NCBI GenBank assembly: GCA_028715785.1
Contig: JAQURC010000001.1
Span: forward strand, 76,766 to 140,765
Reading direction: 5' to 3'
Length of the DNA stretch: 64,000 nucleotides
Origin: Candidatus Omnitrophota bacterium
GTDB taxonomy: Bacteria; Omnitrophota; Gorgyraeia; Gygaellales; Profunditerraquicolaceae
Shown: in pieces, positions 1,982-63,218 of the stretch
Layout: each line of letters opens with the position of its first letter
Numbering within the stretch: the first letter of the stretch is position 1
The notes under the pieces: generated by a model
The model's input: the letters and a program-made list of their open reading frames with translations, nothing else
The model's database searches: none
What the model was told of the DNA's origin: nothing
Translations under genes and position numbers: made by a program

Positions 1982-2982
1982 AAGAAGCTTTACTTTATAC
2001 CCGGCTAGACGGCCTAAGCGTGCATTGCCAGCTCTGCGCGCATAGCTGTAAAATCCAGGAAGGTAAATTCGGTTTTTGCGGGGTACGGCAGAACATCGAA
2101 GGCGCCCTTTACACGCATAATTATGGCAAGCTGGTAGCGGTAAACATAGACCCGGTTGAGAAAAAACCGCTTTTTCATTTTCTTCCCGGGACAACCGCCT
2201 TTTCTATCGCCAGCGCGGGGTGTAATTTCCGCTGCGGCTTTTGCCAGAATTGGCAGATTTCCCAGCTGGATTTTATTAATCAGCAGCCTCCGGGAGAAGA
2301 TTTTAGCCCTGATAAGGTCGTAAAACTGGCTAAGCAGAATAATTGTAAAAGCATCGCTTATACTTATACCGAGCCGACGATTTATTTTGAGTTTGCTTTA
2401 GAGGCGGCGGTATTGGCCAAAAAAGCGGGACTGGCTAATATATTTGTTACCAACGGTTATATGAGCCCTCAAGCAATTGCTTTGCTCAAGCCATATTTAG
2501 ACGCCGCTAATGTGGATTTAAAGTTTTACAAGGAGAGTTCTTATCAGAAGATTTGCGCCGCAAAACTGGCGCCTGTTTTGGATTCTATCAAGCGGTTATA
2601 CGCTGCCGGAGTTTGGATTGAGATTACGACCTTGGTAATTCCCGGTGAAAATGATTCCCCGGAAGAATTATCCGGGATCGCGAAATTTATCGCCGGAATA
2701 AGTAAAAACATCCCCTGGCATGTTTCTGCTTTTCACGCGGATTATAAGTTTAGCGCTTATCCAAACACACCCGAACAGACTCTCAAGCTGGCCTATGATT
2801 TGGGCAAAAGCAGCGGGTTGCTTTATGTGTATGCCGGCAATGTTTATGGTTGGGGCCAGGATACTTCCTGCGGCCAATGCAAAAGGGCCGTTATTAAAAG
2901 AGAAGGGTTCGATATAACCGAGTCCAATCTTGCGGGCAATAAATGCGTATTTTGCCAGGCAGTCTTGCCCGGAGTTTTTTAG
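1978..2982 (+). CDS. AmmeMemoRadiSam-system-type radical SAM enzyme (PflA-like activase fold)
   Basis: N-terminal CQLCAHSCKI motif (C-x2-C-x-H-x-C) plus the radical SAM motif CNFRCGFCQNW. Overlaps the stop of the preceding PP-loop gene by 4 nt. Confidence 0.7.
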   Translation: MKEALLYTRLDGLSVHCQLCAHSCKIQEGKFGFCGVRQNIEGALYTHNYGKLVAVNIDPVEKKPLFHFLPGTTAFSIASAGCNFRCGFCQNWQISQLDFINQQPPGEDFSPDKVVKLAKQNNCKSIAYTYTEPTIYFEFALEAAVLAKKAGLANIFVTNGYMSPQAIALLKPYLDAANVDLKFYKESSYQKICAAKLAPVLDSIKRLYAAGVWIEITTLVIPGENDSPEELSGIAKFIAGISKNIPWHVSAFHADYKFSAYPNTPEQTLKLAYDLGKSSGLLYVYAGNVYGWGQDTSCGQCKRAVIKREGFDITESNLAGNKCVFCQAVLPGVF

Positions 2983-3157
2983 TTTGAGTTGATTTTCTAG
3001 GCTAAAATTGGGCTAAAGATTAGTATTGACAGCCTTAACCGCCGGGTTTAAAATAATTTAGAAACTTAAGCTAACTTACAATTGTCCTTATAAATAAAAC
3101 AATAAAGGCATATACTTTCACGGCCTAAATTGGCGCCTTAAAGGGCGCCAAAAAATT

Positions 3158-5253: not shown

Positions 5254-6183
5254 ATGCTGGATAAAGGCACCCGCGTTTTGAATTTCGATAACAGCATTAT
5301 TGCCCAACCCAAACTCCTTAGCCGCTATCCGGCAGAAATTATTGATTTTACAGACTTGGCTCCTTCTGCCCGGCTTTATATCTCAAGGGCCCTGCGCGGG
5401 AAAATCCTGGATTCTCTTGCCCCGGGAGAAAAAAAATATCCTGTTTTTCTGGGCTCAGGTGATTTTCATCATATCAGCGAAATATTAATCAGCCAAATTA
5501 ATGAGCCTGCCTGTTTGATCGTATTTGATTTCCATCCGGACTGGGATGTCCTGCCTCCCCGTTTTGCCTGCGGCTCCTGGGTAAGCGAGGCTCTAAAAAA
5601 CAAAAATATTTCTAAATGCATACTTATCGGCGCCGGCTCCGATGATTTATCCAGCCCGGCATTACAGACGGCCAACCTTGGCGCTTTGGCCGGTAATCGC
5701 CTGGAGGTTTATCCTTACAGCCATAAACCAGCTAGCGTTTATTTCAGGGGCGTTGCGCAAAACCGCTCGATTACGGTCCAAAAAGGAATTTTTTCAAATA
5801 AAATCATCTGGCACCAGTTGGAGAAAGAGGACTTAACCGCCTTTACCCTGGGATTGATCAAGGGCCTGCCCGAGCGAAAAGTTTATATCTCAATCGATAA
5901 AGATTGCCTAAAAAAAGATTTTGCCTTGACCAATTGGGAAGAAGGCCTTTTGCGTCTGGACCAACTCTTGGCCATGCTGAAGCTGATGCGGGAAAATTTG
6001 GATATAATTGGTTTAGATGTGGCAGGCGACTATTCTGTCCCGCTGGTTTTAAACAAAATAAAGTCGGTTATTTCAAGGCTGGATCATCCTAAAAAATTTT
6101 CTGCAAAAAATTACCCTGCTGATTTGATTTCTTCGGTAAATGAACAAACTAACCTTATGATCCTTGCCGAGGTCTTTCCCTAA
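5254..6183 (+). CDS. Divergent arginase/agmatinase (ureohydrolase) family protein
   Basis: Degenerate ureohydrolase metal-binding motifs GSGDFHHIS, DFHPDWD and SIDKDCL. Confidence 0.4.
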   Translation: MLDKGTRVLNFDNSIIAQPKLLSRYPAEIIDFTDLAPSARLYISRALRGKILDSLAPGEKKYPVFLGSGDFHHISEILISQINEPACLIVFDFHPDWDVLPPRFACGSWVSEALKNKNISKCILIGAGSDDLSSPALQTANLGALAGNRLEVYPYSHKPASVYFRGVAQNRSITVQKGIFSNKIIWHQLEKEDLTAFTLGLIKGLPERKVYISIDKDCLKKDFALTNWEEGLLRLDQLLAMLKLMRENLDIIGLDVAGDYSVPLVLNKIKSVISRLDHPKKFSAKNYPADLISSVNEQTNLMILAEVFP

Positions 6184-14569: not shown

Positions 14570-14806
14570 ATGGCCAAGAGCGTGATAGTCTATAGTACTC
14601 CGACTTGCCCCTGGTGCATCCGGGTCAAACAGTTTTTAAAAGAGAACAACATATTATTTTTAGATTGGGATGTGTCCGTTGATCAGGCCGCCGCGGATGA
14701 GATGATCAAGAAGAGCGGCCAGATGGGGGTGCCGGTGCTGGATATCGACGGACAGATTATCGTGGGGTTTGATAAAGAAAAAATTAAAGCAGCTTTAGGA
14801 GTATAA
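14570..14806 (+). CDS. Glutaredoxin-like protein (YruB/NrdH-like)
   Basis: YSTPTCPWC thioredoxin-fold active site; 78 aa. Confidence 0.75.
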   Translation: MAKSVIVYSTPTCPWCIRVKQFLKENNILFLDWDVSVDQAAADEMIKKSGQMGVPVLDIDGQIIVGFDKEKIKAALGV

Positions 14807-14822
14807 GTTATATTTTGTACTC

Positions 14823-14972
14823 AGGACTTTGTCGCGTGCGAAATTTTTCGCCGTCTGCTGCTGTTTACGACTCACTCTCGGACTGACTTACGTTGTAAGA
14901 ATGTCCTCCGTTCGTCGTAATTCCTTGCACACAGTTGCCGAAAAATTTCTAATTGCACGTTTACAAAGTCCT
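14823..14972. repeat. ~150-bp element bounded by ~30-bp imperfect inverted repeats (MITE-like or double operator)
   Basis: AGGACTTTGTCGCGTGCGAAATTTTTCG at 14823-14850 is the reverse complement of CGAAAAATTTCTAATTGCACGTTTACAAAGTCCT at 14939-14972 apart from small indels. Confidence 0.5.
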
Positions 14973-14994
14973 TCGACAAAATATGATTAACATT

Positions 14995-15906
14995 ATGCAT
15001 ATCTACGATTTGATTATTATCGGGGCAGGGCCGGCGGGAATTACCGCCAGTGTTTATGCCGCCAGGAAAAAATTGGATTTTCTGGTGGTTAGCCTGGATA
15101 TCGGCGGCCAGACCGCCTGGAGCGGGGATATCGAAAATTATACGGGATACCAGTTCATTACCGGACCGGAATTGACCCAGAAGTTCCAAGAGCATATGCG
15201 TAAATACGATATTGCCTTAAAAGAAAATGAAGAGGTTTTAGGGCTTGAGAAAACCGGCGAGATATTTTTAGTCAAGACCAGTAAGGCGGATTATCAGGCC
15301 CATAGCGTGATCATTGCTTCCGGAAAAAAATCCAGGGAGCTGGGGGTCCCGGGGGAGAAAGAATTCAAGAATCGCGGCCTGACATATTGCGCTACCTGCG
15401 ACGGCCCGTTATTTACGGGCAAAGTTGTGGCGGTAATCGGGGGCGGAAACTCGGCGCTGGATGCTGCCCTGCAGCTGATGAAAATCGCCAAACATGTCTA
15501 TATTATCAATAATACCGGCCGGCTGGCCGGGGATGCGATCATGCTCCAAAAGGCGCAGGAAGCCGGCAACGTTACAATTTTAAATAATCATCAGGTCAGC
15601 GCTGTCTTGGGAGATAAATTTGTCCGCGCGATTAAAATCAAGAATAAGGATCAGGAAAAAGAGTTGGCCGTCGAAGGGGTATTTGTGGAGATCGGGCTTA
15701 TTCCCAACTCCGGGTTCCTTAAGGATATAGAAAAGAACGCGGCAAATGAGATAAATATAAATTTATCTAACCAGACCAATGTCCCTGGGGTATTTGCCGC
15801 AGGCGACGTAACCAATGTTTTAGAGAAGCAGATTATTATTGCCGCAGGCGAAGGATCGAAGGCTGCCTTGAGCGCCTTCCGTTACCTGGCCCAGAAAAAA
15901 TTTTAG
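14995..15906 (+). CDS. trxB: Thioredoxin-disulfide reductase
   Basis: IIIGAGPAG FAD motif and CATCDG redox-active disulfide. An alternative start lies at 14983. Confidence 0.85.
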   Translation: MHIYDLIIIGAGPAGITASVYAARKKLDFLVVSLDIGGQTAWSGDIENYTGYQFITGPELTQKFQEHMRKYDIALKENEEVLGLEKTGEIFLVKTSKADYQAHSVIIASGKKSRELGVPGEKEFKNRGLTYCATCDGPLFTGKVVAVIGGGNSALDAALQLMKIAKHVYIINNTGRLAGDAIMLQKAQEAGNVTILNNHQVSAVLGDKFVRAIKIKNKDQEKELAVEGVFVEIGLIPNSGFLKDIEKNAANEININLSNQTNVPGVFAAGDVTNVLEKQIIIAAGEGSKAALSAFRYLAQKKF

Positions 15907-25918: not shown

Positions 25919-26018
25919 ATTTTCTTGCGCACTTCTGCCGAAAATCTTCTAATTGTACCTTCAGCTGTAATTCGCGAATGGAAAAAAGCTGCTTAATATC
26001 TTTTATTTGAGGAGAACA

Positions 26019-26597
26019 ATGATGAAGGCCAGGGAAAGCGGGATGCCCGAGCGTGATATGTGGGAAAAGTTTTTTAACCCCGCAAAGATTTTAGCTACGC
26101 TTGGCCTAAACAGCCAGACGGTTGATGTGGCGGAGTTTGGTTGCGGCTATGGTACGTTTACGATCCCCGCCGCCAAGGTTATCAAAGGCAAAATCTACGC
26201 GCTGGATATTGAGCCGGATATGATTCGTATTACCAATGAAGAAGTCAAAAAACATGGCTTAAACAATGTGCGGATAACACTGCGTGATTTTATAGCGGAA
26301 GGTTCCGGCCTTTCCGACGAAAGTGTTGACTATGTAATGCTCTTTAATATTCTTCATCTCGAGAAACCAACAGTGCTTATTCATGAAGCAAAGCGGGTTT
26401 TAAAAGATGGCGGCAAACTTGGGATTATCCATTGGAATTACGATCCTAAGACACCGAGGGGTCCTTCAATGGATATCCGGCCTAAGCCGGAGCAATGTAT
26501 CAAATGGGCTGAAAGTGCCGGGTTTAGCAATCCGGTTAGATATGATTTAAAACCATATCATTATGGGATCGTGCTTACGAAAGGAGCTTCAAGATGA
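26019..26597 (+). CDS. Class I SAM-dependent methyltransferase
   Basis: VAEFGCGYGTF glycine-rich SAM motif. GAGGAG RBS before ATG 26019. Confidence 0.7.
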   Translation: MMKARESGMPERDMWEKFFNPAKILATLGLNSQTVDVAEFGCGYGTFTIPAAKVIKGKIYALDIEPDMIRITNEEVKKHGLNNVRITLRDFIAEGSGLSDESVDYVMLFNILHLEKPTVLIHEAKRVLKDGGKLGIIHWNYDPKTPRGPSMDIRPKPEQCIKWAESAGFSNPVRYDLKPYHYGIVLTKGASR

Positions 26598-26914
26598 AGA
26601 TAGGGGTGATCATTTCAAGTAACGATGCCGAAACTTGCTGGAATGTCCTTCGGTACGCAAACTTCTGCCTTGGGCAGAAAGATCAGGTGAAGGTATTTCT
26701 TATGGGGAAAGGTGTTGAGTACCAGCAGATAAGTACCGAGAAGTTCAACACGATTGAGCAGGCGGAGAAATTGCTTCAGGCCGGCGGTAAAATACTAGCC
26801 TGCGGAACGTGCGTCAAATTCCGGAATCAGGAAGGCACGGAAATGTGCCCGATTAACACGATGAAAGATATGTACGAGATTATCAAGGAAAGTGACAAGG
26901 TAGTTACTTTCTAA
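26594..26914 (+). CDS. DsrE/DsrF-like family protein
   Basis: MKIGVIISSND...KVFLMGKGV DsrE-like fold signature with a CGTC motif. Confidence 0.55.
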   Translation: MKIGVIISSNDAETCWNVLRYANFCLGQKDQVKVFLMGKGVEYQQISTEKFNTIEQAEKLLQAGGKILACGTCVKFRNQEGTEMCPINTMKDMYEIIKESDKVVTF

Positions 26915-26929
26915 CTCGTTAAATTTATA

Positions 26930-26957
26930 TTGACAAACCGCGAAAATAGTATATACT
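26930..26957 (+). promoter_or_regulatory. sigma70-type promoter of cspA, followed by a long (~125 nt) 5' UTR
   Basis: TTGACA 26930-35, 16-nt spacer, TATACT 26952-57. UTR contains a CCGTAAGG...CCTTACGG hairpin. Confidence 0.5.
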
Positions 26958-27083
26958 TTATAACGTAGTGAGCAAGGGAGTAGAAGTCTTGAACCGTAAG
27001 GAGAAAGAATGACACGCCTTACGGTTTTTTGTTTTACTCCTTGTTTTGGCTATAATTTTAGTGGAAAGGAGGAAGTAAAGAAA

Positions 27084-63024: not shown

Positions 63025-63095
63025 TGGGACGTCGTCCAATGGTAGGACATCAGAATTTGGGTCTGACTATCATGGTTCGAATCCATGCGTCCCAG
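63025..63095 (+). tRNA. tRNA-Gln (TTG)
   Basis: U1:A72 acceptor TGGGACG/CGTCCCA, D-stem GTCC/GGAC, anticodon loop ATTTGGG, T-arm CATGG-TTCGAAT-CCATG, discriminator G. Confidence 0.75.
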
Positions 63096-63218
63096 TGATC
63101 AATATTATGGGGGACGTCCTCCGTGGGGACACCCCTTACAGGAAAAGATTTAATTTAGTTAGTAATATAATGGTTACGGTGTGATAGGGTGTCCCCTTTT
63201 GGGACGTCCCCCTTGAAT

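Follow-up and report, generated by a model that had tools for sequence, protein, structure and literature searches.

A palindromic repeat of probable ERIC/REPIN-like kind between glutaredoxin-like and trxB-like genes of an Omnitrophota bacterium

The stretch of DNA analysed here (the window; 64,000 nucleotides of a Candidatus Omnitrophota bacterium contig) carries at positions 14810-14984 what is probably a copy of a dispersed, non-coding and non-autonomous palindromic repeat that is specific to Omnitrophota and nearest in kind to ERIC sequences and REPINs. We refer to this repeat as family A. The family is multi-copy and intergenic, and at individual spacers copies have been gained, lost or shortened by internal deletion. 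Its pairing is kept by compensatory changes, its copies are homogenised within genomes, and at orthologous sites they are conserved much more strongly than synonymous positions in the adjacent genes. Family A is apparently new as a family and ordinary in kind, of the REP/ERIC/MITE sort. ERIC/REPIN-like palindromic repeat is a better label for it than MITE, because we saw no target-site duplication, conservation is highest in the inner core and lowest at the termini, and no cognate IS turned up beside the copies.

The sequence-only reading had described a 150-bp element bounded by inverted repeats at 14823-14972. The arms and the hairpin were confirmed, but this span was too short: profile alignment and outer-arm pairing placed the real extent at 14810-14984 (~175 nt). 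The arm AGGACTTTGT at 14823-14832 is 100% complementary to ACAAAGTCCT at 14963-14972, the inner arms at 14840-14857 and 14932-14949 are 83% complementary, and the outer arms ATATTTTGT and ACAAAATAT extend the palindrome outward to 14810-14984. An nhmmer profile built from 21 copies aligned over its positions 2-184 to 14810-14983 of the window, with a score of 153. The features of the window are as follows.

14570..14806, plus strand: glutaredoxin-like gene (ORF list; Pfam Glutaredoxin on orthologues)
14810..14984, plus strand: full family A copy (Omnitrophota palindromic repeat), one long imperfect hairpin (nhmmer profile, folds and family alignments)
14810..14832, plus strand: outer left arm, made of ATATTTTGT, an ACTC bulge and AGGACTTTGT; it pairs with 14960-14984, and the family columns (helices 1 and 2) vary yet stay paired
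14833..14853, plus strand: left conserved core CGCGTGCGAAATTTTTCGCCG, with the 14-nt near-palindrome GCGAAATTTTTCGC inside (conservation of the core 20-mer)
14854..14935, plus strand: apical part, made of the stem TTTACG.../...CGTAA (conserved), the tip around CTTACG (variable) and CCTTGCACAC (family alignment)
14936..14959, plus strand: right conserved core TGCCGAAAAATTTC[TAATT]GCACG, in which the right-arm-only bulge TAATT occupies 14950-14954 (family comparison)
14960..14984, plus strand: outer right arm, made of TTTACAAAGTCCT, a TCG bulge and ACAAAATAT (arm pairing and fold)
14960..14987, plus strand: predicted promoter-like site at the junction of element and flank, TTTACA-16-TATGAT, its end lying 7 nt upstream of the ATG of trxB (10/12 consensus match)
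14995..15906, plus strand: trxB-like FAD-dependent oxidoreductase gene (303 aa), starting 10 nt past the element
25923..25967, plus strand: isolated right-arm fragment from a diverged family A subfamily (nhmmer profile positions 123-167 only, E 3e-7)

Compared with shuffled sequence, the hairpin at 14815-14980 gave z values of -6.7 on the plus strand and -7.3 on the minus strand. Over 14810-14984, the predicted RNA fold had an energy of -62.3 kcal/mol (z -8.2) and the DNA fold -37.5 kcal/mol (z -7.2). Each copy consists of two inverted, near-invariant cores (CGCGTGCGAAATTTTTCGCCG; TGCCGAAAAATTTC-TAATT-GCACG), an apical spacer that is less conserved, and variable, complementary outer stems. Folded as RNA or as single-stranded DNA, the complete unit would form a hairpin of ~60-70 base pairs, with a strand-specific bulge of 4-5 nt marking one arm.

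Motif and profile searches of Omnitrophota genomes and metagenomes revealed many additional copies at unrelated loci. The nhmmer profile returned 76 full-length matches (72 distinct sequences) together with truncated ones. In the genome collection, the right-arm motif was found in 19 copies from 7 Omnitrophota or unclassified MAGs, with at least 6 in one MAG and 5 in another, and the left-arm 20-mer detected 64 metagenome loci; orthologous and near-identical loci inflate these copy counts and the orientation counts given below. The length of the copies ranged from ~175 to 200 bp. Because the length of the tip varies by non-multiples of three, the family has no conserved reading frame. Internally deleted copies were present at other loci (L040 and L043), and variants with insertions of 14-20 nt were also observed. 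Neither arm pattern was found in viral contigs. At the Rfam gathering score, the window and 14 related loci matched only tRNAs and not the element, and at permissive settings (E up to 10) neither the window copy nor the L008 copy matched anything better than E 6. A literature search revealed no paper joining Omnitrophota with MITE or REP terms, and the core sequence matched only an unrelated E. coli PCR primer.

The two cores were highly conserved among the copies. The left-core 20-mer GCGTGCGAAATTTTTCGCCG was identical in 17 of 21 copies ascertained by the right arm only, and the right core carried at most one change in 45 of 51 copies ascertained by the left arm. A bulge of 4-5 nt (TAATT, TAAT, CAATT and similar) was seen in the right arm of all 51 left-arm-ascertained copies examined, and the matching position of the left arm was without insertion in 71 of 72 unique copies, the remaining copy giving no match to the pattern. 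Along the hairpin, the inner core was almost invariant, the outer stems were variable but compensated, the tip was variable, with at least two types in the family alignment, and the termini were the least conserved. Pairing was found in 96.3% of the alignment cells. Two-sided changes occurred at 18 pairs, compared with 5.9 +/- 1.6 in shuffles (0 of 500 as high) and 1-5 in slid controls; the pair 66/121 covaried, being GC in 13, AU in 5, UA in 2 and CG in 1. At loci in the tRNA cluster, which were taken as orthologous from their shared flanks, the outer arms differed between copies while complementarity was kept. G-U pairs were rare, and changes were almost all from Watson-Crick to Watson-Crick. 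The minus strand folded better, by ~9.6 kcal/mol, in 70 of 72 copies. A strand test based on G-U against A-C mismatches was discarded: the 134 G-T and 10 A-C counted on a poor 72-sequence alignment were not reproduced by per-copy folds, which contained 212 G-U pairs on the plus strand and 184 on the minus strand.

Copies within one genome were 92-98% identical and clustered by genome, not by locus. On comparing groups with an alignable flanking ORF, the identity of the element at orthologous sites was mostly 0.76-0.93, while that of third codon positions in the adjacent genes was mostly 0.37-0.79.

At the grx-trxB locus, the stop codon of the glutaredoxin-like gene lies 3 nt ahead of the element, and the trxB-like gene starts without a Shine-Dalgarno sequence. 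The trxB-like protein has 100% identity with P0001, an NCBI protein of 303 aa that comes from a Candidatus Omnitrophica MAG, and an exact-protein look-up returned no identical protein for the glutaredoxin-like product. Comparison of this spacer among relatives, a check proposed by the sequence-only reading, showed that the presence of the element varies between close relatives. The spacer is 188 bp long and contains the element in the window and in its closest relative (L001), whereas it measures 0-36 bp in L027, L028, L029, L002 and L004; the spacers of L002 and L004 keep only a 25-nt mini-hairpin composed of the outer arms, and that of L030 contains a different palindrome of ~80 nt. Placed on a protein tree, these states need at least two gains or at least three losses. 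The sequence-only reading had held that a random local palindrome would have no further copies and would be absent from orthologous spacers. Many further copies were found; most orthologous spacers do lack the inverted repeat, as is predicted of a mobile or unstable repeat.

Filled and empty grx-trxB sites revealed no target-site duplication, only an ambiguous overlap of 1-3 nt, (G)AC, and none was seen on comparing filled and empty CitMHS-Rrf2 spacers. We considered whether the outer arms were a widespread pre-existing target into which the core had inserted. The mini-hairpin pattern was uncommon in 276 kb of related sequence, non-orthologous copies share outer arms, and deletion derivatives with other breakpoints exist; this idea was therefore rejected. 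The mini-hairpin of L002 and L004 is probably a deletion remnant, an independent origin being less likely.

The right end of the element, together with its flank, could form a sigma-70-like promoter, and a leaderless trxB transcript is possible. The equivalent site of L001 reads CTTACA-16-TATAAT at the same position. We infer both the mover of the repeat and the local effect of the element on trxB; a very stable hairpin placed between grx and trxB would probably affect the processing or stability of the transcript.

The arm motif had also been reported to recur at 25924-25959. The shared motif was non-random, as TGCCGAAAANNTTCTAATTGNAC has just two matches in the window, at 14936 and 25936, where 0.02 would be expected by chance, but the site is not a second element, since it contains the right-arm core only. 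This fragment (25923-25967) lies ~50 nt upstream of a methyltransferase/DsrE-like gene pair and is absent in relatives without the pair. Its core, GCCGAAAATCTTCTAATTGTACCT(C/T)CAGC, as read from the alignment, is nearly identical to the right arm of a diverged full copy (L012).

All inspected copies were intergenic. Flanking genes ran in the direction of the element in 34 cases and against it in 9, upstream stop codons abutted or overlapped its left end, and one copy was situated inside a co-oriented tRNA cluster. The family is not redox-specific, since its neighbours were functionally unrelated and included tRNAs and pilin-like, msbA-like (ABC-transporter-like), lysS-like, uvrC-like and MFS-like genes. 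The element is likely to be transcribed along with neighbouring operons, because most copies are sense-oriented within or just after transcription units. Immediately after family A copies, a second family of long-hairpin repeats and a short third module often followed, in a fixed order. Flanks were not conserved among non-orthologous copies, and no recurrent direct repeat was detected in the flanks of 70 copies.

A general promoter function of the element was examined and rejected. A scan of both strands of 68 copies under strict sigma-70 criteria revealed no promoter-like site whose position was shared by five or more copies. The internal TTGCAC-17-TCTAAT is missing the A that is essential as the second base of the -10 box, and the terminal TTAACA-16-TATCTA is without the final T. 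Genuine promoters (TTGACA-17-TAAACT or TATACT) were located downstream of the repeats. No U-tract terminator followed the window hairpin.

Among ~520 ORFs within 2.5 kb of the copies, no transposase family recurred, and no autonomous parent element or cognate IS was identified beside them. Using an E. coli YafM sequence as a query, we detected a Y1/RAYT-like gene 85 nt from the copy at L062. Its Y1_Tnp protein exceeded the cutoff of 23 for Pfam PF01797, with 61.7 bits, and fell below the cutoff of 80 for NCBIfam REP_Tyr_transpos, with 69.3 bits. The association of this type of gene with family A did not recur, as three other independent loci of the protein family had no element within 3 kb. 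These three loci carry their own, different inverted repeats (GTAGACGC/GCGTCTAC), and the GTAGACGC repeats were not enriched away from those genes.

Family A was compared with known repeat systems. It resembles ERIC (~127 bp) in being an imperfect palindrome over its whole length, in lying in intergenic, transcribed regions near gene ends, in having tens of copies per genome that are present or absent between related genomes, with no known transposase, and in having variants with internal deletions and internal insertions. Wilson and Sharp reportedly described such ERIC variants in 2006. Unlike ERIC, family A is found in another phylum, is longer (175-200 bp), has a near-invariant inner core and a conserved one-sided bulge, and is clearly homogenised within genomes; the likeness is one of architecture only, and phylum and composition make sequence homology unlikely. 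ERIC alters mRNA decay when it is transcribed (PMC10969869).

The likeness to REPINs, whose features were taken from a published account (bioRxiv 10.1101/2021.07.10.451892), includes a hairpin of two near-invariant inverted units with a variable spacer or tip, genome-specific populations, apparent persistence at the same sites across related genomes and no target-site duplication. Each REP unit is defined by a palindrome of ~14 bp; in family A the left unit holds its own 14-nt near-palindrome, GCGAAATTTTTCGC, and the counterpart in the right core is interrupted by the TAATT bulge. Omnitrophota also have a Y1/RAYT-like gene family, with one member near a copy as described above. Family A differs in being about twice the usual REPIN length, in having extra paired outer stems beyond the conserved units, and in a core without the conserved GTAG or CGTC tag that is described next to REP (PMC3733652). 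GT(A/T/C)C stands before the core and CGTG after it, with CGTC in the window copy only. Family A does not consistently flank the RAYT-like genes that were examined, and these carry different repeats of their own.

Like Correia elements, family A is a small multi-copy inverted-repeat element near genes, with a promoter-like site at the junction of element and flank in the window copy. Correia elements end in defined terminal repeats of 26 bp and duplicate a TA target. Family A, unlike these, is without visible duplication, and its ends are the variable part. Sigma-70-like promoters at the ends of Correia elements and RNase III cleavage of their mRNA hairpins have been described, as have clustered and nested small repeats in pneumococcus (PMC10969869). 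The fixed order of family A, the second hairpin family and the third module recalls BIMEs and the pneumococcal BOX, RUP and SPRITE repeats; the Omnitrophota modules are unrelated to these in sequence and much longer than REP units. The asymmetric bulge in an imperfect palindrome is shared with integron attC sites. An attC identity is not supported: attC sites lie at the 3' end of mobile cassettes, in arrays beside an integrase, whereas family A copies are single, occur between housekeeping genes in conserved synteny and within a tRNA cluster, and formed no arrays at the loci inspected.

Of the three options given by the sequence-only reading, a MITE-like element came closest, in that the repeat is dispersed, multi-copy and variable in presence. 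A classical MITE, which would derive from a DDE-type IS by internal deletion, move through its terminal inverted repeats and make target-site duplications, is nevertheless unlikely. Small size, terminal inverted repeats, intergenic copies that are present or absent between relatives, and deletion and insertion variants are consistent with it, but the two filled and empty spacer comparisons gave no duplication, variable termini around a conserved internal core are the reverse of transposase-recognised terminal repeats, complementarity with compensatory changes runs along the whole length, and no transposase family recurs nearby. A small RNA gene that stands alone and has several copies in each genome would account for the very stable, conserved and covarying structure of ~180 nt; the promoter, terminator and Rfam searches above, the unconserved flanks of non-orthologous copies and the frequent overlap with upstream stop codons argue against it and make it very unlikely. 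The suggestion that the two window sites are operators for a redox-responsive regulator common to the grx-trxB and methyltransferase/DsrE loci had some appeal, as both sites are upstream of thiol- or sulfur-related genes and share a non-random motif, and relatives encode an Rrf2-family regulator in the same gene cluster. However, the same sequence stands beside tRNA, pilin-like, transporter-like and other unrelated genes, relatives keep the redox operon without the element, and the methyltransferase/DsrE pair and its motif are jointly absent from relatives. In addition, GATACTAATATGGTATC, which overlaps the TTGACA promoter of the Rrf2 operon, is a different palindrome and the likely Rrf2 operator. 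This reading is extremely improbable, and a tempting but wrong conclusion about a shared redox operator is thereby removed for the window.

A more serious, though still tentative, alternative to the palindromic repeat is a host-functional cis-acting RNA. The long double-stranded hairpin in operons and tRNA clusters might be a processing or 'punctuation' site (e.g. for RNase III) or a 3' stabiliser of the upstream message, with the core and bulge bound by protein. The predominance of sense orientation, the copy within the tRNA cluster, the left ends abutting stop codons, the compensatory changes, the conservation at orthologous loci far above synonymous sites and the invariant position of the asymmetric bulge are in line with such a role, and transcribed Correia and ERIC elements are targets of RNase III or RNase E (PMC10969869). 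Against it stand the rarity of G-U pairs, the more stable antisense fold, the ~1/5 of copies that are antisense to their neighbours, close relatives without the element at the same spacer and the lack of an Rfam match; moreover, the orientation bias could equally mirror a replication-strand bias of single-stranded-DNA transposition.

Returning to the ERIC/REPIN-like repeat, the core and bulge, folded in single-stranded form, would be recognised by a trans-acting host or transposase-like protein, which would copy, convert or maintain the repeats. Presence/absence patterns suggest mobility, and palindrome deletion could explain much of these patterns. An RNA element that benefits the host would be just as consistent with the strong conservation at orthologous sites and with the bias in orientation. 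It is possible, although doubtful, that family A is not a decaying selfish repeat and is instead half of a long-lived two-part system across much of Omnitrophota. In such a system, a strand-asymmetric hairpin with its invariant core and bulge would be read as a single strand by a dedicated, putative protein, which would copy or convert the hairpins and keep them at the ends of transcription units, where they would punctuate operons. Candidates for such a protein are an HUH/Y1-type enzyme working without terminal repeats or target duplications and an RNA-binding or processing factor. Genome-wise concerted evolution, conservation above synonymous sites and the two co-occurring structured repeat modules are compatible with a two-part system and are not proof of it. 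A partner protein, if one exists, would extend REPIN-RAYT-like associations between host and repeat to a new phylum and a new hairpin architecture.

Omnitrophota are uncultivated and mostly ultra-small, with compact genomes, for which persistent families of structured repeats of ~180 nt are unexpected ballast. Family A may serve as a metagenome marker for Omnitrophota, and it would introduce promoter and processing-site variation beside core genes such as trxB. It is also a likely source of contig breaks in MAGs and of mis-called small ORFs, such as the 53-aa ORF at 14829-14990.

The hairpin element between the glutaredoxin-like gene (grx) and trxB, at window 14810-14984, essentially certainly belongs to a dispersed palindromic repeat family of Omnitrophota, hereafter family A. 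The right-arm motif was searched for in a collection with a single genome for each prokaryotic species. Of the 22 loci that matched, 19 were in seven Omnitrophota or unclassified MAGs (six in one MAG, five in another and three in another). The other three, from Gastranaerophilales, Fluviicola and Acidobacteriota, were rejected as isolated chance matches with no surrounding element. A metagenome scan with a left-arm 20-mer, which has zero bases in common with the right-arm pattern, gave 64 further loci, and the two scans together revealed many copies beyond the one recurrence noticed in the sequence-only reading. An nhmmer profile recovered truncated copies and 76 full-length ones, among which 72 sequences were distinct. 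Viral contigs yielded no copy, Rfam held no matching family even at E up to 10, and we found no paper reporting such repeats in Omnitrophota.

A repeat search of the window detected inverted arms at 14823-14832 / 14963-14972 (10 nt, 100% complementary) and 14840-14857 / 14932-14949 (18 nt, 83%). Folded as RNA, 14815-14980 gave -57.8 kcal/mol (z -6.7) on the + strand and -63.6 kcal/mol (z -7.3) on the - strand, and the real fold was beaten or equalled by 0 of 200 shuffles. The interval 14810-14984 gave -62.3 kcal/mol (z -8.2) as RNA and -37.5 kcal/mol (z -7.2) as DNA, and the entire element is predicted to be a single long imperfect hairpin. A 23-nt motif common to a second site (25923-25967, upstream of a methyltransferase/DsrE-like gene pair) matched the window at 14936 and 25936 only, with 0.02 matches expected. 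The inverted arms and shared motif first read from the sequence are thus present beyond chance. The palindrome described at 14823-14972 is real, but its limits are not, as the profile aligns to 14810-14983, about 25 nt longer. A 53-aa ORF lying entirely within the element (14829-14990) is almost certainly spurious; such ORFs recur in other copies because the underlying DNA is conserved, and tip-length differences disrupt the frame.

The layout of family A was read from the alignment of its copies (A2) and a larger copy set. The outer stems comprise about 20 pairs, whose canonical form is GATATTTYGC-TCTC-GGGATATTGT opposite ACAATATCCC-TCG-GCAAAATATC, and differ among genomes and loci, yet complementarity is kept. 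The inner core is near-invariant (left, CGCGTGCGAAATTTTTCGCCG; right, TGCCGAAAAATTTC[TAATT]GCACGC): the left 20-mer was identical in 17 of 21 copies ascertained via the right arm only, and among 51 ascertained via the left arm only, 45 had one change or none in the right core. Each of the 51 examined copies ascertained via the left arm had a right-arm bulge of 4-5 nt (TAATT, TAAT, CAATT and similar). The corresponding place in the left arm was free of any insertion in 71 of 72 unique copies; in the last copy the pattern could not be found. The upper stem (GGTTTACG paired with CGTAAA) is conserved, and the tip that it closes, around CTTACG, is variable, with two types or more. Some copies carried 14-20 additional nt after CTTGCACAC, and two (L040 and L043, among the retrieved loci numbered L001 onwards) were internally shortened to about 88 nt.

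Over a 52-pair consensus hairpin, pairing was found in 96.3% of cells. Two-sided changes were observed at 18 pairs, compared with 5.9 +/- 1.6 in column shuffles; that count was not attained in any of 500 shuffles, and slid controls gave 1-5. Pair changes were nearly all from Watson-Crick to Watson-Crick, and G-U pairs were rare. Six copies between the same tRNA genes had mutually different outer arms that were still complementary (for example TTTGATAACCTGTGGT/ACCACAGGTTATCAAA and GACAACTTGCGGGCTT/AAGCCCTCAAGTTGTT), with the core unchanged. In per-copy folds the reverse strand was more stable in 70 of 72 copies (mean difference 9.6 kcal/mol), because its internal loops are rich in purines, those of the + strand in pyrimidines. 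These data suggest that a folded species, either RNA or single-stranded DNA and from either strand, is under selection.

In the window, the element begins 3 nt past the grx stop codon. The gene 3' of it starts with ATG at 14995, and its product is 100% identical to a 303-aa FAD-dependent oxidoreductase of a Candidatus Omnitrophica MAG. The surrounding redox cluster is conserved (Rrf2 - prismane - rubredoxin - AhpC - flavodiiron protein - PNPOx-like - Grx - TrxB - NifU). The sequence-only reading had listed a pair of redox-regulator binding sites, for a regulator shared by two loci, among its possible explanations. Every copy inspected was intergenic, and the neighbours were varied (tRNAs, many pilin-like genes, msbA-like, lysS-like, uvrC-like and MFS-like genes, and the Rrf2 operon); this diversity excludes a redox-specific role. 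A different palindrome, GATACTAATATGGTATC, overlaps the TTGACA promoter upstream of the Rrf2-prismane redox cluster and is a plausible putative Rrf2 operator distinct from the element; exact search did not find it in the window.

Positions of the GATACTAATATGGTATC palindrome
L001 3725-3760
L004 3135-3170
L011 about 6000-6040
L002 2725-2770

Judged by long flanking ORFs, 34 cases had both neighbours in the element's orientation, 9 had both opposed, 2 were divergent and 0 convergent; these counts are inflated by orthologous loci, but the bias is nevertheless seen at different loci. Commonly, 0-20 nt separated the left end from the upstream stop codon, which overlapped that end in several loci, as T|GATATTT.

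Recognisable promoters in these genomes were sigma-70-like and downstream of the repeats. The csp promoter was TTGACA-17-TATACT (window about 26930-27031), and those of the pilin-like genes were TTGACA-17-GGGTAAACT. The long csp leader has a conserved terminator-like hairpin (AACCGTAAGG...CCTTACGGTTTTTT), common to all relatives retrieved. Two promoter-like arrangements inside the element were rejected, as key -10 positions were wrong, and no promoter-like site occupied a fixed position in at least 5 of 68 scanned copies. The right arm of the window copy has TTTACA where TTAACA is usual, and with the flank it forms TTTACA-16-TATGAT (10/12 match). The L001 equivalent, CTTACA-16-TATAAT, ends 7 nt before the trxB ATG. 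A -10-like box (TATGAT, TATAAT or TATAGT) was found 5-7 nt before this ATG in the window, L001 and L027, and trxB had no Shine-Dalgarno sequence in the window (14982-14997), L001, L027 or other relatives. It would be a reasonable inference that this hybrid element/flank promoter-like site gives trxB a leaderless transcript.

Orthologous grx-trxB loci were fetched via TrxB homologues. The element was present only in the window and L001, and the relatives showed several other spacer states.

States of the grx-trxB spacer (percentages, TrxB identity to the window)
Window and L001 (93%): 188 bp, element present
L027/L028 (91%): 26 bp, no hairpin
L029 (90%): no spacer, grx and trxB overlap
L002/L003/L004 (87% and 85%): 36 bp, 25-nt mini-hairpin ATATCTTGC-ACTCAGG-GCAAAATAT
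L030 (83%): 87 bp (2914-3000), distinct palindrome of about 80 nt (AAATTTGCGGGTCC...ACCCGCAAATTT)

The mini-hairpin matches the outermost arms of the element, which stands out cleanly in the spacer alignment (A1) as a block of about 151 bp. Three flanking proteins gave the neighbour-joining tree ((L029, (L001, window)), ((L002, L004), L027)), with L030 outside. Given this tree and the presence/absence pattern, this one spacer would need two or more gains, or else three or more losses. In view of the other palindrome in L030, the spacer seems to be a hot spot where palindromes insert.

The arm motif reported to recur at 25924-25959 does share the right-arm core, but it is not part of a second full element: the second site aligns only to profile positions 123-167. 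Its variant AAAATCTTCTAATTGTACCTYCAGC also occurs in a diverged full copy, L012. In relatives found through an identical cold-shock protein (L096, L101, L102 and L104), a 96-aa ORF was directly followed by csp, without the methyltransferase/DsrE-like genes and without the motif. The second site is therefore a solo arm and, as gene pair and motif are both absent there, appears to belong to a lineage-specific insertion. The gene pair itself (26019-26914) is a block inserted in this lineage, or lost elsewhere.

Same-position copies across genomes were compared at sites after a 303-aa gene, after a CitMHS-like gene, and in the gap separating a 555-aa gene from one that is MFS-like. They were mostly 76-93% identical; in groups with an alignable flanking ORF, the adjacent genes were 37-79% identical at third and 80-95% at first and second codon positions. 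Copies grouped by genome and not by locus, with within-genome identity of 92-98%. For example, L020 was 98% identical to L008 of the same MAG, whereas L021, its counterpart at that position in a different genome, had another tip type. Same-position conservation together with grouping by genome points to concerted evolution or continuing turnover, plus sequence constraint.

A MITE-like element had been suggested, and family A is indeed a dispersed multi-copy repeat; unlike a classical MITE, it has no target duplication, its termini are variable and its interior conserved, and no parent IS was found. ERIC sequences, which include deletion and insertion variants, and REPINs are its best architectural matches. 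ERIC sequences are whole-length palindromes at gene ends with no known transposase (PMC10969869). REPINs consist of two conserved inverted units with a variable spacer between and form genome-specific, long-persisting populations (bioRxiv 10.1101/2021.07.10.451892). Family A differs from both in length, extra outer stems and an invariant one-sided bulge, and lacks a GTAG or CGTC tag. We file it as a new family of a known kind of repeat. It is probably non-autonomous, mobile and ERIC/REPIN-like; its mechanism of spread and its effect on trxB expression are inferred.

Clustering of about 520 ORFs near copies revealed no recurrent transposase. A tblastn search with an E. coli RAYT query identified a 228-aa ORF upstream of the L062 copy, at a distance of 85 nt, scoring 61.7 bits against Pfam Y1_Tnp (cutoff 23) and 69.3 bits against the NCBIfam REP-associated tyrosine transposase, under its cutoff of 80. 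Its family of Y1/IS200-like (RAYT-like) proteins, roughly 221-249 aa and most often 228 aa, is large in Omnitrophota (548 relatives at E up to 1e-10).

RAYT-like genes inspected
L062 795-1481
L106 3001-3672
L109 3001-3687
L112 406-1083

All four loci were bounded by their own short inverted repeats (GTAGACGC-like upstream, GCGTCTAC-like downstream), which were not enriched elsewhere, and the three further independent loci had no element within 3 kb. For these reasons the possible RAYT link to family A is only a lead. Short tandem repeats, e.g. CCGTAGAA or AATCGTAGG, were seen upstream of the RAYT-like genes.

Another long palindrome (GGGGGACGTCCTCCGTGGGGACACCC ... GGGTGTCCCCTTTTGGGACGTCCCCC) was observed at window 63109-63212, just past the tRNA at 63025-63095, and probably represents a second repeat family. 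A closely similar palindrome lies at L096 about 1690-1790, between the 96-aa ORF and csp. A hairpin repeat family of about 190 nt, AGCGGATGGCTTGGCTTGTTTC to GAAACAAGACAAGGCAGACGCT, occurs directly 3' of family A copies, with short deletion derivatives in L014, L017 and L011; it had no Rfam match and no window copy. Downstream of many family A copies, and ahead of the next gene's real promoter, is a third module (CTATAGCTAAAATCGACATTCGCTCCAAAACCAGCAGCCTAAGTGTAACGGA), which is conserved.

Repeats adjoining family A copies
About 190-nt AGCGGATGGCTTGGCTTGTTTC-GAAACAAGACAAGGCAGACGCT hairpin: L019 2055-2235, L024, L054, L071, L060, L093, L043 and others
CTATAGCTAAAATCGACATTCGCTCCAAAACCAGCAGCCTAAGTGTAACGGA module: L008 3123-3175, L086, L049, L061, L052, L040
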